From the IMG/VR virus record IMGVR_UViG_2585427757_000006: 64,000 nucleotides of DNA; one strand, written 5' to 3'. The position numbers and the translations under genes are program-made. Every line of letters starts with the position of its first letter. The first letter of the stretch is position 1. Shown piece after piece: positions 55,155 to 60,470 of the stretch. The notes below the pieces were generated by a model that made no database searches, was not told the DNA's origin, and saw only the letters and a list, made by a program, of their open reading frames with translations. This DNA comes from a virus. Taxonomy: Duplodnaviria; Heunggongvirae; Uroviricota; Caudoviricetes.

Positions 55155-55541
55155 ATGTCTGACAACAAGATTGAATTTATAGAAAGTCGCTATGCTGCTT
55201 TTATCGCAGGGCTGATTGAATCCTCACCTATGAGTCAGGCCCAAATAGCCAGACTTATTGGTTATAAAAATGCCAACAACCTTTCTTTAATTAAAAGTGG
55301 CAAAATTCCTTTGCCTATCGATAAGGTTCGTCCGTTGGCGCTGGCGCTGGGTATTGAGCCAAGTCGTCTTATGATGATGGTGCTGGAAGAACGCCAACCT
55401 GAACTCGCAGCATTTTTATACAAAGAAGGCACCGCTCCTCTTAACGAGGACGAAAAACAGGTTCTTGCTGCATATAACGAGCGATTCGGTAAAGAGAAAG
55501 GCGCATCACAAAAGGTTGTTGAGGCTATAAAGTCTCTATGA
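55155..55541 (+). CDS. XRE-type helix-turn-helix regulator (128 aa)
   Basis: MSQAQIARLIGYKNANNLSLIKSG fits an HTH. Converges on and overlaps the integrase gene end by 6 nt. Confidence 0.7.
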   Translation: MSDNKIEFIESRYAAFIAGLIESSPMSQAQIARLIGYKNANNLSLIKSGKIPLPIDKVRPLALALGIEPSRLMMMVLEERQPELAAFLYKEGTAPLNEDEKQVLAAYNERFGKEKGASQKVVEAIKSL

Positions 55542-56639
55542 AAAATTTACACGAATAAGCTCTGTTGATAGACGATCTCCCTTAAATTTGTGGTCAATTT
55601 CGTCTAAATCCGGTTGCTCTACGATTGATGCGATGTACGTCGAGAAACTTTCTAAGGCGTCTCGCATCTCGTCCATATAATCGTGCCGGTCGTAGACCCG
55701 ATCTATCCCCTCAAGACTGTGGTTCATGATTTTACGTGATACCTCCTGGCTTATGCCTAATGCTGGGAAGTAACTACGCGCAGTACGGCGCAAATCTCGG
55801 GGTGTAAATGGCTCAAGCTCCATCAGTTCTGGTCGTTCCAGAATACGACGTAATGCCTGGGCTATTGCCACTTTAGACATAGGAAGGTCTTTCCCGATTT
55901 TTTTATTCGAAGGCACGAGCCACTGGCTGTCTTTACCATATTCGAACAACTCTTCAATACAAGTGCGCATTAATGAGCTTAAAGGCAGAGAATGCTCACG
56001 GGCAGATTTGTTCCTCTTGCCTTGATTCCAAACCCCACGCTTAAGATTGAACTCACTTTTTTTAGCCCGCAGTACTTCGTCAGGTCGTCTTGCGGATACA
56101 AGACATAGCCTGGCCGCCCATTTTGTACCAGCACACACATTGAAGTAGTCCCATATATTCCAGAACACCCATACCTCTGCGTCGGTCAGCTTCCGCTCGC
56201 GAGGTGTGGGCTTTGCGCCACCGGCAACTTTGTTTAGTGACATATCGTTTAACGGTGACACGTCTATCATCCCCTGGAAGGCGCACCAGCTAAGGAACTG
56301 CTTCATCAGAGAGAAAACGCGGCGGCCCATAACAATTTTGCCATCCAGTATTAGTGGGTTGACCAGTTGGTTCACCATGAACCTATTAATGTCACTTACT
56401 TTTACATCGGCAATGTGCGGCAAAACATGTATCAAAATACAATGAACAGCGATCTCTGGCCGACGTCTGGTTATCAGCAGAGATAAGCGAGTGAATAACA
56501 TGAATGCGTCCGAGAATCTCATGTCATTGCTGACCTGGGAGATCATAACGGCCTGCATTTGAGATGCTCTTTCGAGATACTCTATCGCCTCTTTTGAGGT
56601 GTTCTCCGCAGCGCGTGCTCTGTCAAAGCTATTTTTCAT
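55536..56639 (-). CDS. Tyrosine recombinase / phage integrase family (367 aa)
   Basis: Catalytic context ARRPDEV (Arg), PRDLRRTA (second Arg), MNHS (His) and VYDRHDY (Tyr). Confidence 0.9.
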   Translation of the reverse strand: MKNSFDRARAAENTSKEAIEYLERASQMQAVMISQVSNDMRFSDAFMLFTRLSLLITRRRPEIAVHCILIHVLPHIADVKVSDINRFMVNQLVNPLILDGKIVMGRRVFSLMKQFLSWCAFQGMIDVSPLNDMSLNKVAGGAKPTPRERKLTDAEVWVFWNIWDYFNVCAGTKWAARLCLVSARRPDEVLRAKKSEFNLKRGVWNQGKRNKSAREHSLPLSSLMRTCIEELFEYGKDSQWLVPSNKKIGKDLPMSKVAIAQALRRILERPELMELEPFTPRDLRRTARSYFPALGISQEVSRKIMNHSLEGIDRVYDRHDYMDEMRDALESFSTYIASIVEQPDLDEIDHKFKGDRLSTELIRVNFS

Positions 56640-57654: not shown

Positions 57655-57900
57655 TTATAGTGTACTCACCAGCGCCGCAAATTCCGTATACCCCCCAATA
57701 TGCTCTCCATGTATGAATATCTGAGGTATGGTATCCACTGGTTTACCAACCAGGTTGCTCAACGTTTCTTTGTTGATCCCCGCAGATGTAATATCTATAT
57801 ACTCATAATCACCGTAGCCATGTCCCTTTAGTTGCTTCGCCAACTCGACCGCACGTTTGCAGTATGAGCAGTTATCTCGTCCGTAGATAGTGATCGTCAT
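57655..57900 (-). CDS. Glutaredoxin-like redoxin (81 aa)
   Basis: Active site CSYC at residues 11-14, a TIPQIFI..G..IGG motif, and small size. Plausible electron donor for NrdAB. Confidence 0.8.
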   Translation of the reverse strand: MTITIYGRDNCSYCKRAVELAKQLKGHGYGDYEYIDITSAGINKETLSNLVGKPVDTIPQIFIHGEHIGGYTEFAALVSTL

Positions 57901-58073: not shown

Positions 58074-58982
58074 ATGATTGGTAAGTTGTCTGATTCTTTG
58101 ATTGAAAATAAATACAACGAATTTAGAGAAGAAATATCTTTACTTTTTGACTATTTAAATCAGATAAATGATACAACAAAGAAAAATATAAAACGTCTTC
58201 TTAAAGAAGTGGAGTATGCACAAAATCCAGATACTATTATTAATATTAATGAAACTATTAAGATTAAGTGTGGCACAACGTTAGCTCGCCATTTATGTTC
58301 AAACCCATATACAGGTTCAACATTAGAGATAGGTAACAGCGCCATTGATTTAGAAGAAAAGATAAGATTGTGTAATACTTTGAAAAATAAACAATATCAG
58401 TGGGTTATTACTGAAGCCTATGAGTTACTGGAAGACTATATTGAGGCAATATATGTCTATACTGTATGTGTTCGAAATGATTTATGGTCCTCAAGTGATT
58501 TTGGTAAGGTTGAAGATGATGAAATTGGGAAAAGGGAAGTTTATTACAGATTATTAAAAGCAAAAAGTAACCCATCGAAAAAAATAACTAAAATTTTCAG
58601 AAATAAAATACCTGGCTTCAAAGAGATAGAAACAAACAACAAGATTGGCAAAAACTATCGCTTTAACATCAAGCTAATTGAACTACTAAGACATACAATA
58701 GTACACAATAGTGGACGATTCAATGATACAGAAAAATTTATAAATAAGGTTTTAGATGAATCTGAAATAAACGGTAAGAAAAGAGTTATTGGAGAAAGAG
58801 CTGTTAGAAGTTACATTACTAAAGTGCAAGAAGATGATATTGTGATGCTCTTAGAAAGACCATCTGAAATTTTAGGTTCTTTTGGTGGGTATTTTAACAG
58901 AGCAAAATTTTTACTAAGTGATATTTTAGAATACTCACTAATCATTAAAGAAGAACTAAAATCATATCTAGGCAATCATTAA
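58074..58982 (+). CDS. Low-GC hypothetical protein with a HEPN-type Rx4H motif (302 aa)
   Basis: SD agagg at 58064-58068. LIELLRHTIVHNSGRF gives R-HTIV-H. Composition (by eye below ~30% GC) is much lower than the neighbours. Confidence 0.6.
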   Translation: MIGKLSDSLIENKYNEFREEISLLFDYLNQINDTTKKNIKRLLKEVEYAQNPDTIININETIKIKCGTTLARHLCSNPYTGSTLEIGNSAIDLEEKIRLCNTLKNKQYQWVITEAYELLEDYIEAIYVYTVCVRNDLWSSSDFGKVEDDEIGKREVYYRLLKAKSNPSKKITKIFRNKIPGFKEIETNNKIGKNYRFNIKLIELLRHTIVHNSGRFNDTEKFINKVLDESEINGKKRVIGERAVRSYITKVQEDDIVMLLERPSEILGSFGGYFNRAKFLLSDILEYSLIIKEELKSYLGNH

Positions 58983-58986
58983 CAAA

Positions 58987-59013
58987 AAAGGGGCCGAAGC
59001 CCCTTTGGATTTT
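58987..59013 (+). terminator. Strong intrinsic terminator after the HEPN-motif gene
   Basis: aaaggggc cgaa gccccttt, then ggatttt. Confidence 0.8.
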
Positions 59014-59080
59014 GCGCTTAAAAAAGTGTTGCTAGGATGTTAGCAAGCTATGGTTAAGAACGTCTGCCGTAATTGTCTAT

Positions 59081-59158
59081 CACAGCGTTGAGCGGTCTGG
59101 TTTATGTTAGCGGAGTCTTAATCTGGGTGATTAAAAGGCCAAACCGCTCAACGCTGTG
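59081..59158. repeat. Long hairpin A, 16-bp perfect arms, abutting the tRNA-Ser 3' end
   Basis: cacagcgttgagcggt 59081-59096 pairs with accgctcaacgctgtg 59143-59158. Confidence 0.85.
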
Positions 59159-59160
59159 TC

Positions 59161-59247
59161 TGGCGGAGAGTAATGGAATCGAACCATCATCGCTTGCGCA
59201 ATGGGACGGTTTTCAAGACCGCTTGAGCACCATGCTCCCTACTCTCC
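59161..59247 (-). tRNA. tRNA-Ser (anticodon UGA), class II, CCA encoded
   Basis: Hand fold: acceptor ggagagt/actctcc, anticodon arm gcggt-cttgaaa-accgt, variable arm with a gcaa tetraloop, T arm gatgg-ttcgatt-ccatt. Confidence 0.85.
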
Positions 59248-59249
59248 GG

Positions 59250-59399
59250 CCGTTGTGGTGGCCGGTACTGAATCTCCGGCATACGGTGCAGCCAATTAGG
59301 ACTACGGACGATCACCGCTCGCGAAAGGGAAGATTTGCGGCCGCATTTCCCTAACATCCAAGAAAGCTATCGCATCAGTCTGCGAATCCACCACAACGG
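59250..59399. other. 150-nt segment closed by a 12-bp perfect stem between tRNA-Ser and tRNA-Thr (candidate small RNA)
   Basis: ccgttgtggtgg 59250-59261 pairs with ccaccacaacgg 59388-59399. Internal hairpin agggaa..gcggccgc..ttccct. Confidence 0.3.
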
Positions 59400-59471
59400 T
59401 AAGATCACTACCTTTCGACCAGTCATTGTGCACATGAACGACGATTAACCGTAATGATCTTATCGTTGTAT

Positions 59472-59547
59472 TGGTGCCGGTTAGCGGACTCGAACCGCTG
59501 ACATCCTGCTTACAAGGCAGGCGCTCTACCAACTGAGCTAAACCGGC
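59472..59547 (-). tRNA. tRNA-Thr (anticodon UGU), CCA encoded
   Basis: Canonical cloverleaf: gccggtt ta gctc agttggta gagc g cctgc cttgtaa gcagg atgtc agcgg ttcgagt ccgct aaccggc a cca. Confidence 0.92.
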
Positions 59548-59551
59548 AATT

Positions 59552-59638
59552 TGGTGGGGAGTGATGGAGTCGAACCACCCGAGTCGCAATGACAGTAGAT
59601 TTACAGTCTACCCCGCTGCCCCTACGGACTAACTCCCC
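59552..59638 (-). tRNA. tRNA-Tyr (anticodon GUA), class II, CCA encoded
   Basis: Acceptor ggggagt/actcccc, anticodon arm gtaga-ctgtaaa-tctac, variable stem gtc/gac, T arm ggtgg-ttcgact-ccatc. The D arm is slightly non-canonical. Confidence 0.8.
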
Positions 59639-59643
59639 TAAAT

Positions 59644-59718
59644 TGGCGATGGTGGGTGGATTCGAACCACCGACCAGTTGGTTAACAGCCAACTGCTCTA
59701 CCGCTGAGCTACACCATC
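59644..59718 (-). tRNA. tRNA-Asn (anticodon GUU), CCA encoded
   Basis: Canonical cloverleaf: gatggtg ta gctc agcggta gagc a gttgg ctgttaa ccaac tggtc ggtgg ttcgaat ccacc caccatc g cca. Confidence 0.92.
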
Positions 59719-59984
59719 AATTCAGCACTGCCAGTATTTATTACTCAACAGTGCCAATCGCGACGGTTTAGTTTCTGCCAGGAAACGCACCGCTACTTGC
59801 ACTTTTCGTTTGTGCCAGACGCTTTCGACTTCGCTCAATAGTAGAAGGCAAAATCTTTAAGTAGATGATGTTTCTGAGGACAGCACCTACTTTGTAATTT
59901 ATACAATGTGATGTATGGAATCATTTGTTGTGAAAACAGGCACCAATGGCAACAGTGGTTAAACCTACACAACAATCCTGTCTT

Positions 59985-60106
59985 CACAACGTTGAGGCCA
60001 CTACTCCGATTGAATGTTTGCCCAACATGTTACATATCAACGCTCGCCGGTATCTCTGTGAATAGAACCTTAGAATTGATAAAAATGTAATGGCCTCAAC
60101 GTTGTG
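59985..60106. repeat. Long hairpin B, 16-bp perfect arms related to hairpin A
   Basis: cacaacgttgaggcca 59985-60000 pairs with tggcctcaacgttgtg 60091-60106; 90-nt loop. Confidence 0.85.
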
Positions 60107-60439
60107 TGCTGGCTAACCATACCAGCCGGGCTACGTCGCCGCTTTTTAACCCAGTATAAACGACATAATTGAACAAAATGACGTAACAGGATGGGCGGTC
60201 AGTGGCTAAGAATCCGGGAGTCATATGGAGTTGAAAATATACCAACCGCCCATTCTGTTCCCTCCTGCGTTCTGCAATCACACTCGCTCAGTGTGTCCCA
60301 TTTCGGTAACGAGGCTGGAAACTGACCTCGCTGGTGTTTGGCTTATTAGGCTACTGCCAGATAGACTTCTTCGTTTGCACTTGTATTTAAGTTCAAACAG
60401 TCGCGTCTCAACGAAAACAAAGTCATCTTATACATAAAA

Positions 60440-60461
60440 GATAAGTAAGTAAATACTTATC
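60440..60461. promoter_or_regulatory. Representative family B palindrome
   Basis: gataagta agtaaa tacttatc. Confidence 0.5.
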
Positions 60462-60470
60462 AATATGTTT

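Follow-up and report, generated by a model that had tools for sequence, protein, structure and literature searches.

The subject of this analysis is a tRNA cluster, together with an RNA element encoded within it, at positions 59161-59718 of a 64,000-nucleotide (nt) stretch of viral DNA, the IMG/VR record IMGVR_UViG_2585427757_000006. The whole stretch is called the window below. A first description made from the letters alone (the sequence-only reading) had placed four tRNA genes here, for Ser, Thr, Tyr and Asn, each with an encoded CCA end, and had noted a 224-nt gap between two of them. When the window was searched with ARAGORN, exactly four tRNAs were found, all on the minus strand and all at the positions given by that reading.

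The tRNA cluster and the structured RNA in its gap

In the order of transcription, the genes encode tRNA-Asn(GUU) (59644-59718), a type II tRNA-Tyr(GUA) (59552-59638), tRNA-Thr(UGU) (59472-59547) and tRNA-Ser(UGA) (59161-59247). The CCA ends were confirmed for all four genes by reading the minus strand, and the spacers also agreed with the earlier description: 5 nt between Asn and Tyr, 4 nt between Tyr and Thr, and 224 nt between Thr and Ser, which yields the arrangement Asn-Tyr-Thr-(224 nt)-Ser. Independently of ARAGORN, three of the four genes passed the gathering score of 29 bits of the Rfam tRNA covariance model RF00005, namely Thr with 76.5 bits, Asn with 75.5 bits and Tyr with 39.7 bits; Rfam yielded no other match in the window at its gathering thresholds. 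The cluster is genuine and, as a tRNA cluster, ordinary.

The carrier had been taken for a phage, and this was correct; the element is an E. coli phage-plasmid of the SSU5-like kind. Escherichia phage CMS-2020a matches the region along its entire length with 99.0% identity, and phage Cyrano and a second CMS-2020a record are 96-97% identical in parts. More distant kin are Salmonella phage SSU5 and Klebsiella phage-plasmids of about 110 kb. At least 80% of the cluster was found on 117 plasmids of the PLSDB collection, which are about 110 kb in size, non-mobilizable and mostly from E. coli, and parts of it were found on 1,051 plasmids.

The 224-nt gap turned out not to be a mere spacer. It contains a conserved hairpin followed by a structured RNA of about 150 nt. 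The hairpin, which we call the U hairpin, lies at the 5' end of the gap (59400-59462, minus strand) and has a predicted stem of 12 base pairs (bp). The same module is present upstream of tRNA-Ser of phage rV5 and in Klebsiella phage SCNJ1-C. Its stem covaries in the three phages (AAGAUCA/UGAUCUU, AAUGGCA/UGUCAUU and AAGAGCA/UGCUCUU), and its apical sequences AUCGUCGUU and CUCGAA are conserved in all of them. The structured RNA element follows directly (59250-59399, minus strand) and ends 2 nt before tRNA-Ser. It is predicted to adopt a multi-branch fold that is closed by a 12-bp helix, P1 (CCGUUGUGGUGG/CCACCACAACGG). Within this helix lie the hairpin P2 (UCGCA-GACUGA-UGCGA), then a variable domain, and then the hairpin P3 (GCCGG-AGAUUCAGUA-CCGGC), which is stacked directly on P1. 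The phages P7 and D6 share the final 162 nt of the gap with 97.5% identity, while the flanks outside of the tRNAs diverge. A coding role of the gap was considered and rejected, because the open reading frames (ORFs) that overlap it are short and overlap the tRNAs as well.

A comparison of the element in many genomes yielded a family consensus. P1 consists of GUGGUG/CACCAC with an extension of 1-3 bp and is followed by the linker AAU, P2 has the sequence GCGCA-GGCUGA-UGCGC, and a variable insert and the linker AA lead to P3 (GCCGG-AGAUCAGCA-CCGGC), which runs straight into the 3' strand of P1. The total length of the element varies between 62 and 212 nt, with a median of 124 nt, owing to the variable insert. 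The hairpins P2 and P3 are near-invariant. The predicted layout resembles that of a tRNA, with P1 as the "acceptor", P2 as the "D" and P3 as the "T" arm, and with the insert in place of the anticodon and variable region.

The pairing was tested with 65 distinct "stitched" element sequences. In these, 94.9% of the paired cells could form a pair, compared with 91.0% in shuffled controls; because the elements were collected by an exact 5' motif, and the finder of the 3' ends itself demanded pairing (at least 5 of 6 pairs in P1 and at least 4 of 5 in P3), this percentage is inflated and P2 was hardly free to vary. Two-sided changes were observed at 9 pairs and in 57 cells. For each of these three measures, none of 500 shuffles reached the observed value. 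When the partner was shifted by 1-3 columns as a control, 25-51% of the cells were paired. P3 in particular exists in several compensatory variants (GCAGG/CCUGC, GCUGG/CCAGC, GUUGG/CCAAC, GCCGA/UCGGC and GCCAG/CUGGC). In addition, the loop of P2 (RCUGA) is complementary to the loop of P3 (UCAGY). At the single variable position of this putative loop-loop interaction, G-C was found 46 times, G.U 11 times and A-U 6 times, and the pair was broken twice; in a table of 93 sequences, the association had a Fisher p of 0.01.

The element did not correspond to a described RNA family in Rfam. With Rfam 15, no match was obtained in 59248-59471 even at E values up to 10, in a permissive search that covered 58900-59950; weak matches to miRNA, snoRNA, YrlA and Vault models in the latter region were judged to be due to chance. 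At the gathering threshold, no Rfam match was obtained at the element in 14 other loci either. A hammerhead ribozyme was considered, as CUGAUG within the core is reminiscent of the hammerhead core. It was rejected, because the A9 and the GAAA context that such a ribozyme needs are absent and the Rfam hammerhead models gave no match.

Several related modules were observed in other genomes. A mini-element variant (GUGAUGAAU...CCAGA-AGAUAAGCA-UCUGG-CGUCAC) directly precedes tRNA-Ser in the SSU5-like locus L203, and in P7 and D6 it comes first among the elements. The 469-nt spacer of these two phages is a chain of modules, composed of a hairpin, the mini-element, a third module, a long hairpin and the full element (D6, L002 3111-3575; P7, L003 3111-3556), and CACAAC repeats mark the borders of the modules. 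The third module (GCAGGAACGACCAAUAAACGGUAGUCCGUA...GGCCGGAACCGUAACCGGCAC) is also present downstream of the element in the viral contig L067. In another viral contig, L130, sequences that resemble the D arm and the T arm of a tRNA (GCUCAAUCGGUAGAGC...CUGGUUCGAUUCCAG) lie within the variable insert of the element; ARAGORN calls no tRNA there.

The RNA of the gap may be part of a longer transcript. Downstream of tRNA-Ser, folding revealed a perfect 20-bp hairpin (59079-59158, minus strand) that starts 2 nt after the CCA of the gene. The segment 58980-59165 folds with -64.9 kcal/mol (z = -7.7), and none of 200 shuffles was equally stable. The hairpin is conserved in Cyrano and has partial similarity in P7 and D6; it could be a candidate RNase III site, a processing structure or a structure that stabilizes the 3' end. 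A terminator scan identified a strong intrinsic terminator further downstream (58987-59006, minus strand; AAAGGGGCTTCGGCCCCTTT followed by a T run), which closes the tRNA transcription unit and may be bidirectional, i.e., common to this unit and a convergent ORF. On the other side of the cluster, a crude consensus scan of 59719-60470 upstream of tRNA-Asn revealed no sigma-70-like promoter. Because of the terminator after the cluster and the lack of such a promoter in front of Asn, the tRNAs probably represent the 3' end of a minus-strand unit that contains genes for a ligase and a primase. In the record of P7, the homologous tRNAs are annotated within the ban operon, which is controlled (repressed) by C1. 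The 59719-60470 region is itself of note. These approximately 750 nt between small phage genes and tRNA-Asn do not contain a convincing ORF, and Cyrano has a similar stretch in which no genes are annotated.

Distribution and possible role of the gap RNA

The 24-nt core of the element, GTGGTGRATKCGCAGRCTGATGCG (59371-59394), was used for analyzing its distribution. The core occurs once in the window, where none would be expected by chance, and no further copies were found there with up to 3 mismatches or with a looser signature. Outside of the window, the exact core was found in at least 120 viral contigs of IMG/VR and in 60 species-representative bacterial genomes from several classes. The carriers include Enterobacterales, Aeromonas, Pseudomonas, Marinobacterium, Betaproteobacteria (Janthinobacterium, Massilia, Undibacterium and Xenophilus) and one alphaproteobacterium, as well as metagenome-assembled genomes labelled Geobacteraceae, Acidobacteriota and Desulfonatronovibrio. 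A representative element matched 169 phage records, e.g., HK620, HK633, HK629, mEp460, P1, PY54, Stx2 phages and Klebsiella phages of the Ackermannviridae. BLAST matches of seemingly low identity were considered as possible variation of the core; the low identity was due to the variable insert, and the cores were again near-invariant. Among 5,426 complete E. coli genomes, 848 carry one particular variant of the element, and no feature is annotated at its position. None of the records examined carried an RNA annotation of the element, and a full-text literature search with the core sequence, both as DNA and as RNA, did not retrieve a paper. The e14 and CPS-53 remnants of K-12 lack the element, which explains why it has no curated K-12 name. 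Judged from these comparisons, the gap RNA is a member of a structured-RNA family of phages and prophages that is strongly conserved, very widespread and, as it seems, undescribed.

The genomic positions of the element were not uniform. A tRNA on the same strand was found within 400 nt downstream in 19 of 139 unique elements. In 10 of the 139, the element abuts such a tRNA at a distance of 7-12 nt, and these tRNAs include Ser-UGA, Arg-UCU, Met, Pro and Ser-GCU. About 86% of the elements lie away from tRNAs, in the leaders of late operons or downstream of cI-like repressor genes, and processing linked to tRNAs therefore cannot be the general function of the element. In the curated genome of HK620, pR'/qut precedes the element and the late terminator tQ follows it at a distance of 47 nt; several prophages carry it with a Q-like gene on one side and the holin/endolysin genes on the other. 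In Stx2a_WGPS2 and in one E. coli prophage, it was found about 350-450 nt downstream of a cI-like repressor gene and ahead of the early-left genes. The leader of pR' and the sequence that follows cI are both transcribed in lysogens of phage lambda.

We propose the following role for the element. The gap RNA would be co-transcribed with the tRNAs and would then be set free as a stable non-coding RNA, through a cut by RNase P at the 5' end of tRNA-Ser and further cuts at the hairpins on its flanks. The released RNA, with its predicted tRNA shape, would then contact a conserved component of the host. A conserved host partner is argued for by the near-invariance of the core across bacterial classes, and RNA polymerase, RNase P, another tRNA-binding enzyme or a defence nuclease would be candidates. 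That the gap RNA is co-transcribed, released as a stable tRNA-shaped RNA and contacts a conserved host factor is a serious possibility, which we rate somewhat short of an even chance. The same tentative standing is given to the more general proposal that the element and its companion hairpin represent an undescribed, widespread class of tRNA-shaped non-coding RNAs of phages and prophages that act via a universally conserved host component.

The main rival explanation is that the element acts in cis on transcription, as an antiterminator or attenuator on RNA polymerase that is functionally similar to the put RNA of phage HK022, and is not released as a stable RNA. The typical sites of the element at the starts of long phage operons, such as the site between pR'/qut and tQ in HK620, are in favor of this explanation, as is the site downstream of the cI-like repressor genes in Stx2a_WGPS2 and the E. 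coli prophage, where no N-like ORF is annotated. However, HK620 already has Q and qut for tQ, and in the window the element has a tRNA on either side, and the first terminator comes only after tRNA-Ser. Terminator-like hairpins within 250 nt were found downstream of 58 of 132 elements, compared with 34 of 132 upstream; this enrichment is modest and the detector was lenient, as it also reported 44 of 132 on the antisense strand. The U hairpin can compete for the CCGUUGU strand of P1 and thus offers an alternative pairing.

The comparison with put itself did not yield an identity. The HK022 put RNA has a length of about 70 nt, forms two stems and binds RNA polymerase (PMC9378689), and the near-invariance of the core across bacterial classes would fit binding to such a conserved machine. 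The two kinds of RNA are also alike in that HK022 put and the putL-like RNA of HK639, which lies downstream of pL, are phage RNAs near the starts of long operons and upstream of terminators. In contrast, the two stems of put are arranged in a V shape without a closing helix or a variable insert, and the sequences differ as well. The 24-nt core is absent from HK022 and HK639 at up to 3 mismatches, and the annotated putL-like RNA of HK639 is unrelated in sequence. We therefore rejected an identity with put, and we regard a cis-acting element that replaces a released RNA as unlikely.

The late-operon leader of HK639 (L208, 20375-20520 and 20810-20930) contains further features that touch on this subject. 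It carries tRNA-like remnants, one of them with an Asn-type anticodon loop. A relative of the element that has diverged (GUGGUGAAUCC...CCGGGAGGCACCCGGCACCAU) is also located there, with a terminator behind it, and the record annotates an "M3-like RNA".

Two other groups of phage RNAs invite comparison with the proposed released RNA. The tRNA cluster of phage T4 embeds stable RNAs (species 1 and 2, rnaC/rnaD), which are processed from the same precursor as the tRNAs. These are likewise small structured RNAs in a phage tRNA operon, whereas the family found in the window occurs mostly away from tRNAs, in lambdoid late leaders and beside repressor genes. The C4 RNA of P1/P7 and the CI RNA of P4 are small, tRNA-like immunity RNAs of temperate phages and phage-plasmids with a closing helix and two hairpins, which are matured by tRNA-processing enzymes such as RNase P. 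However, the Rfam model of C4 (RF01695) did not match the element, the matches to C4 and isrK in locus L021 lie away from it, and no antisense target of the element was identified in this comparison.

Origin and purpose of the tRNAs

The sequence-only reading had named the identity of the tRNAs with host copies as an outcome that would speak against a special role. Their identities with the K-12 genes were 63.9% for Ser (serT), 80.3% for Thr (thrU), 70.0% for Tyr (tyrU) and 64.9% for Asn (asnT), with a G73 discriminator in the case of Asn; the identity elements were retained despite the divergent tRNA bodies. Much closer relatives were found in phages. The Ser gene is 100% identical in P7, 99% in D6 and about 90% in rV5-like phages, and it is 73-79% identical in phages of Klebsiella, Pseudomonas and Acinetobacter. 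The Tyr gene is 98.9% identical to that of vB_EcoM-Ro157c2YLVW, 92% to those of rV5-like, about 90% to those of T4-like and 79% to those of T5-like phages. It is an insertion in the alignment with Cyrano, P7 and D6 and is missing from all three. The Asn gene is also present in Cyrano, P7, D6 and L203, and N4-like phages contain a colinear block of three tRNAs with 78% identity. By these sequence comparisons, the four tRNAs are phage-lineage genes and not host copies.

The arrangement of the genes differs among the relatives. Cyrano has a tightly packed Asn-Thr-Ser, P7 and D6 have Asn-Thr-(469 nt)-Ser, the SSU5-like locus L201 has the same four tRNAs as the window, the loci L203-L205 have Asn-(147 nt)-Ser, and rV5 has Arg-Tyr-(114 nt)-Ser-(202 nt)-Thr-Met-Pro. 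Across the phage-plasmids, Asn and Ser are the constant members, and the P1 family has the set Asn, Thr and Ser plus a tRNA with a CAU anticodon, annotated as Ile in P7. The block in the ban operon of P1/P7/D6 is most similar in design, as it has the order Asn, Thr, long non-coding stretch, Ser, and closely related Thr and Asn genes. However, the window has the additional tRNA-Tyr between Asn and Thr, a spacer of 224 nt versus 469 nt that lacks the first mini-element and the middle module of P7 and D6, and an SSU5-like and not a P1-like backbone. The cassette is a mosaic whose modules are exchanged between unrelated phages of enterobacteria (P1/P7/D6, rV5-like, T4-like and N4-like), and the cluster is a new arrangement of this known, horizontally shuffled phage cassette. 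In rV5 (L135), the unannotated stretch 880-990 between tRNA-Ser and tRNA-Thr ends in a perfect T arm and an acceptor-like 3' strand (GGUGGUUCGAUUCCAUCACCUAGCACC); this stretch could represent a tRNA that is degenerate or of unusual form.

The tRNA-Ser had been correctly named as a Ser-UGA gene in the sequence-only reading, while its non-canonical architecture had been missed. In the Rfam search of the window it remained below the gathering threshold of RF00005, and its best permissive match was the tRNA-Sec model RF01852, with 46.6 bits versus a gathering score of 47. The gene has also troubled annotators: it is not annotated in the record of P7, and in D6 the annotators were unsure, as tRNAscan-SE gave it no amino acid. 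A consensus fold was calculated with RNAalifold from eight phage homologues (the window and seven others) plus serT. It consists of an acceptor stem of 8 bp with an invariant A8-U pair, a T stem of 4 bp, a D stem of 4 bp with a loop of 4-5 nt, and a long variable arm of 5 bp with a GCAA loop, together with G73 and the anticodon UGA. Covariation was observed for the D stem (GAGC/GCUC, GCUC/GAGC and GCUA/UAGC) and for the T-stem pair in columns 79/91 (UA 4, GU 3, AU 1 and GC 1). Alternatively, the acceptor and T stems could be drawn as 7/5 via an invariant G.U pair, since A8, G and U are all invariant in the family.

By its predicted fold, the gene is a well-supported non-canonical 8/4 tRNA-Ser, of a class already described in phages. 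A previous report placed the (8/4) tRNA-Ser/allo-tRNA class in bacteriophage tRNA clusters (Mukai et al. 2017, PMC5389517), with phage examples that include marine metagenomes and alphaproteobacterial phages. The window gene shares with this class the 12-bp acceptor branch that can be drawn as 8+4, the compact D arm, the long variable arm, G73 and the serine anticodon, whereas the D arm of typical allo-tRNAs has a long stem and a tetraloop and not a 4-bp stem with a 4-5-nt loop. Because of the 8/4 architecture, tools based on covariance mis-score the gene.

Codon usage was compared between 51 long ORFs of the window (16,861 codons, from a mechanical gene call on the 64 kb) and 114 ORFs from about 125 kb of K-12. 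UCA was enriched 1.57-fold, UAC 1.53-fold and ACA 1.51-fold, all of them among the ten most enriched codons, whereas UAU was enriched 1.09-fold, UAY combined 1.30-fold and AAY combined 1.12-fold. The four most enriched codons were AGA (2.18-fold), AAG (2.12-fold), AUA (1.93-fold) and CUA (1.78-fold), and none of them has a cognate tRNA in the window. In the K-12 regions read, thrU and serT were present in one copy each. Codon usage thus supports Thr(UGU) and Ser(UGA) moderately and Tyr more weakly, and does not support Asn.

One explanation would be that all four tRNAs are kept solely because the codon usage of the element differs from that of its host. The element is more AT-rich than E. coli (G+C content 0.39-0.54, mostly about 0.45), and the single host genes for Thr(UGU) and Ser(UGA) would fit this explanation, as do the enriched codons UCA, UAC and ACA. 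However, Asn is a constant member of the cassette together with Ser and at the same time the least explained of the four, UAU is also hardly enriched, and the four most enriched codons are served by no tRNA of the window. Compensation of codon usage, which the sequence-only reading had named as a general role of phage tRNAs, accounts for a part of the set, and we regard it as quite unlikely to be the sole reason.

The other proposal of the sequence-only reading was that the small set has a targeted role against host nucleases that cleave tRNAs. A targeted set was not borne out, as close relatives carry Asn-Thr-Ser or Asn-Ser. The comparison with the host isoacceptors at the anticodon loop did not reveal a sign of evasion. 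The 7-nt loops of Ser (CUUGAAA), Thr (CUUGUAA), Tyr (CUGUAAA) and Asn (CUGUUAA) are identical to those of serT, thrU, tyrU and asnT of K-12, and within the anticodon arm the differences are confined to the stems. Mutation of the loop has been proposed to be a mark of nuclease-resistant phage tRNAs (PMC10264068), and because all four loops are identical to those of the host, this signature is absent.

It could nevertheless be that the cluster, especially Tyr and Asn, mainly replaces host tRNAs that are destroyed by tRNA-targeting immunity or toxins. Examples would be Retron-Eco7 PtuAB, which targets tRNA-Tyr, colicin E5, which targets the GUN tRNAs Tyr and Asn, and HEPN nucleases such as HepS, which targets Thr, Ile and Ser tRNAs. 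A phage tRNA-Tyr or even the host tRNA-Tyr rescues phages from Retron-Eco7 PtuAB when it is expressed from a strong phage promoter (PMC11555353), so that oversupply alone can suffice, and replenishment by oversupply, or a buffering of tRNA depletion, is plausible. The unexplained Asn gene, the difference of 20-36% between the tRNA bodies and those of the host, and the gain of Tyr specifically in this lineage would fit with a role in anti-defence. The window tRNA-Tyr also belongs to the same broad phage family as the T5 tRNA-Tyr that counters Retron-Eco7, with 79% identity to T5-like genes; a further case of this kind is tRNA-Lys against PrrC/PARIS. In contrast to these systems, the window represents a temperate phage-plasmid, with loops identical to those of the host and no strong promoter at the cluster in the crude scan. 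In addition, the composition of the cluster varies freely among close relatives, and the window tRNAs have U34 (UGU and UGA), whereas a named target anticodon of HepS is Thr(GGU). An anti-defence role as the main purpose is, in our view, on the unlikely side.

We favor a more general supply of decoding capacity. Four functional phage-lineage tRNAs would be made during phage gene expression and raise the decoding capacity. Thr(UGU) and the 8/4 Ser(UGA) would read ACA and UCA, which are used about 1.5-fold more by the element than by the host, and Tyr and Asn would add to the general supply, which would also buffer a depletion of tRNAs. Thr and Ser are well supported in this role, and the support for Tyr and Asn is of a generic kind.

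Neighboring genes and significance of the locus

The neighbors of the cluster include an integrase gene, a glutaredoxin gene, small phage ORFs and a DNA ligase gene. A gene of the tyrosine integrase family (55536-56639, minus strand) and the glutaredoxin gene (57655-57900, minus strand) flank an accessory region, and the same arrangement was found in Cyrano and in L201. In a plasmid-type prophage, the integrase may serve as a resolvase rather than for integration. The integrase gene lies about 2.5 kb from the cluster, and the Ser anticodon stem-loop has a 15-nt exact stretch in common with the host serT. Therefore, it was considered that the tRNA genes are attP-type sequences for integration by this enzyme and are not used for decoding. 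However, all four tRNAs are complete, end with CCA, have intact cloverleaves and are merely 64-80% identical to the host genes, the same cassette is present in virulent phages without integrases (rV5 and T4-like), and the relatives are recorded as non-mobilizable plasmids of about 110 kb. We give almost no credence to this explanation.

The convergent ORF at the other side of the terminator (58074-58982, plus strand) encodes 302 amino acids, has a low G+C content and ends 4 nt from the terminator of the tRNA operon. It did not match Pfam or PADLOC, and in PHROGs it matched only a family of unknown function; eight unnamed homologues were found. A motif RHxIVH (Rx4H; R206-H207-T-I-V-H211) did not vary among 6 sequences with identities as low as 21%, and the protein is a probable HEPN-domain RNase. 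Homologues with 56% and 40% identity occupy the same slot beside the tRNA clusters of other SSU5-like elements. Positions 1-3842 of L203-L205, beside the HEPN-like ORF, contain genes of the colicin M, microcin, YafO toxin and PhoH families. The region next to this ORF is a hotspot of accessory and competition genes.

It is conceivable that the HEPN-like protein is a tRNA-cleaving nuclease for abortive infection or competition and that the adjoining tRNAs let the element's own lytic cycle proceed, i.e., that the two form a self-immunity module. The convergent orientation at a distance of 4 nt, the conserved slot of the homologues and the competition genes of L203 would agree with such a module. 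However, the ORF is missing from Cyrano, P7, D6 and rV5, all of which possess the tRNAs, and L203-L205 have the ORF with just Asn and Ser, so that the ORF and the tRNAs are not inherited together as a unit; cleavage of tRNAs by the ORF product is itself putative. We consider a self-immunity module very unlikely. A strict linkage of the ORF with tRNA-Tyr or with the gap element was rejected on the same distribution.

Taken as a whole, the locus is best explained as a mosaic tRNA operon for decoding whose gap encodes conserved RNA modules, one of which would be released as an RNA; we judge this explanation to be slightly on the probable side. Several points weigh against it. Co-transcription, processing and stability of the gap RNA are all inferred from its sequence, and most members of the family are located away from tRNAs, as described above. 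The double changes in the pairing test are few per position and phylogenetically non-independent, in addition to the inflation of the paired-cell percentage, and the near-invariant loops could reflect binding of a protein or RNA polymerase instead of loop-loop pairing. For the tRNAs, the support by codon usage is just moderate, as it compares a mechanical call of 51 ORFs with a K-12 sample of about 125 kb, and it leaves Asn unexplained.

The locus has implications for phage biology at several levels. The cluster is a clean example of tRNA cassettes that are shuffled between phage-plasmids, both SSU5-like and P1-like, and virulent phages. Its 8/4 tRNA-Ser exemplifies a gene overlooked by standard pipelines, as seen with the P7 record, the tRNAscan-SE typing in D6 and the Rfam tRNA model. 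The HEPN-like gene makes the locus convenient for asking whether prophage tRNases and phage tRNAs are functionally paired. With respect to the gap RNA, a core that is identical from Enterobacterales to Betaproteobacteria and beyond means that the RNA almost certainly does something important. If the proposed role is true, roughly one E. coli genome in six would carry a new regulatory or counter-defence RNA. The element would also explain a stretch that has long been passed over in P1, HK620 and other model phages. If its partner were found, a further level of phage gene control, or of the conflict between phage and host, might come to light.

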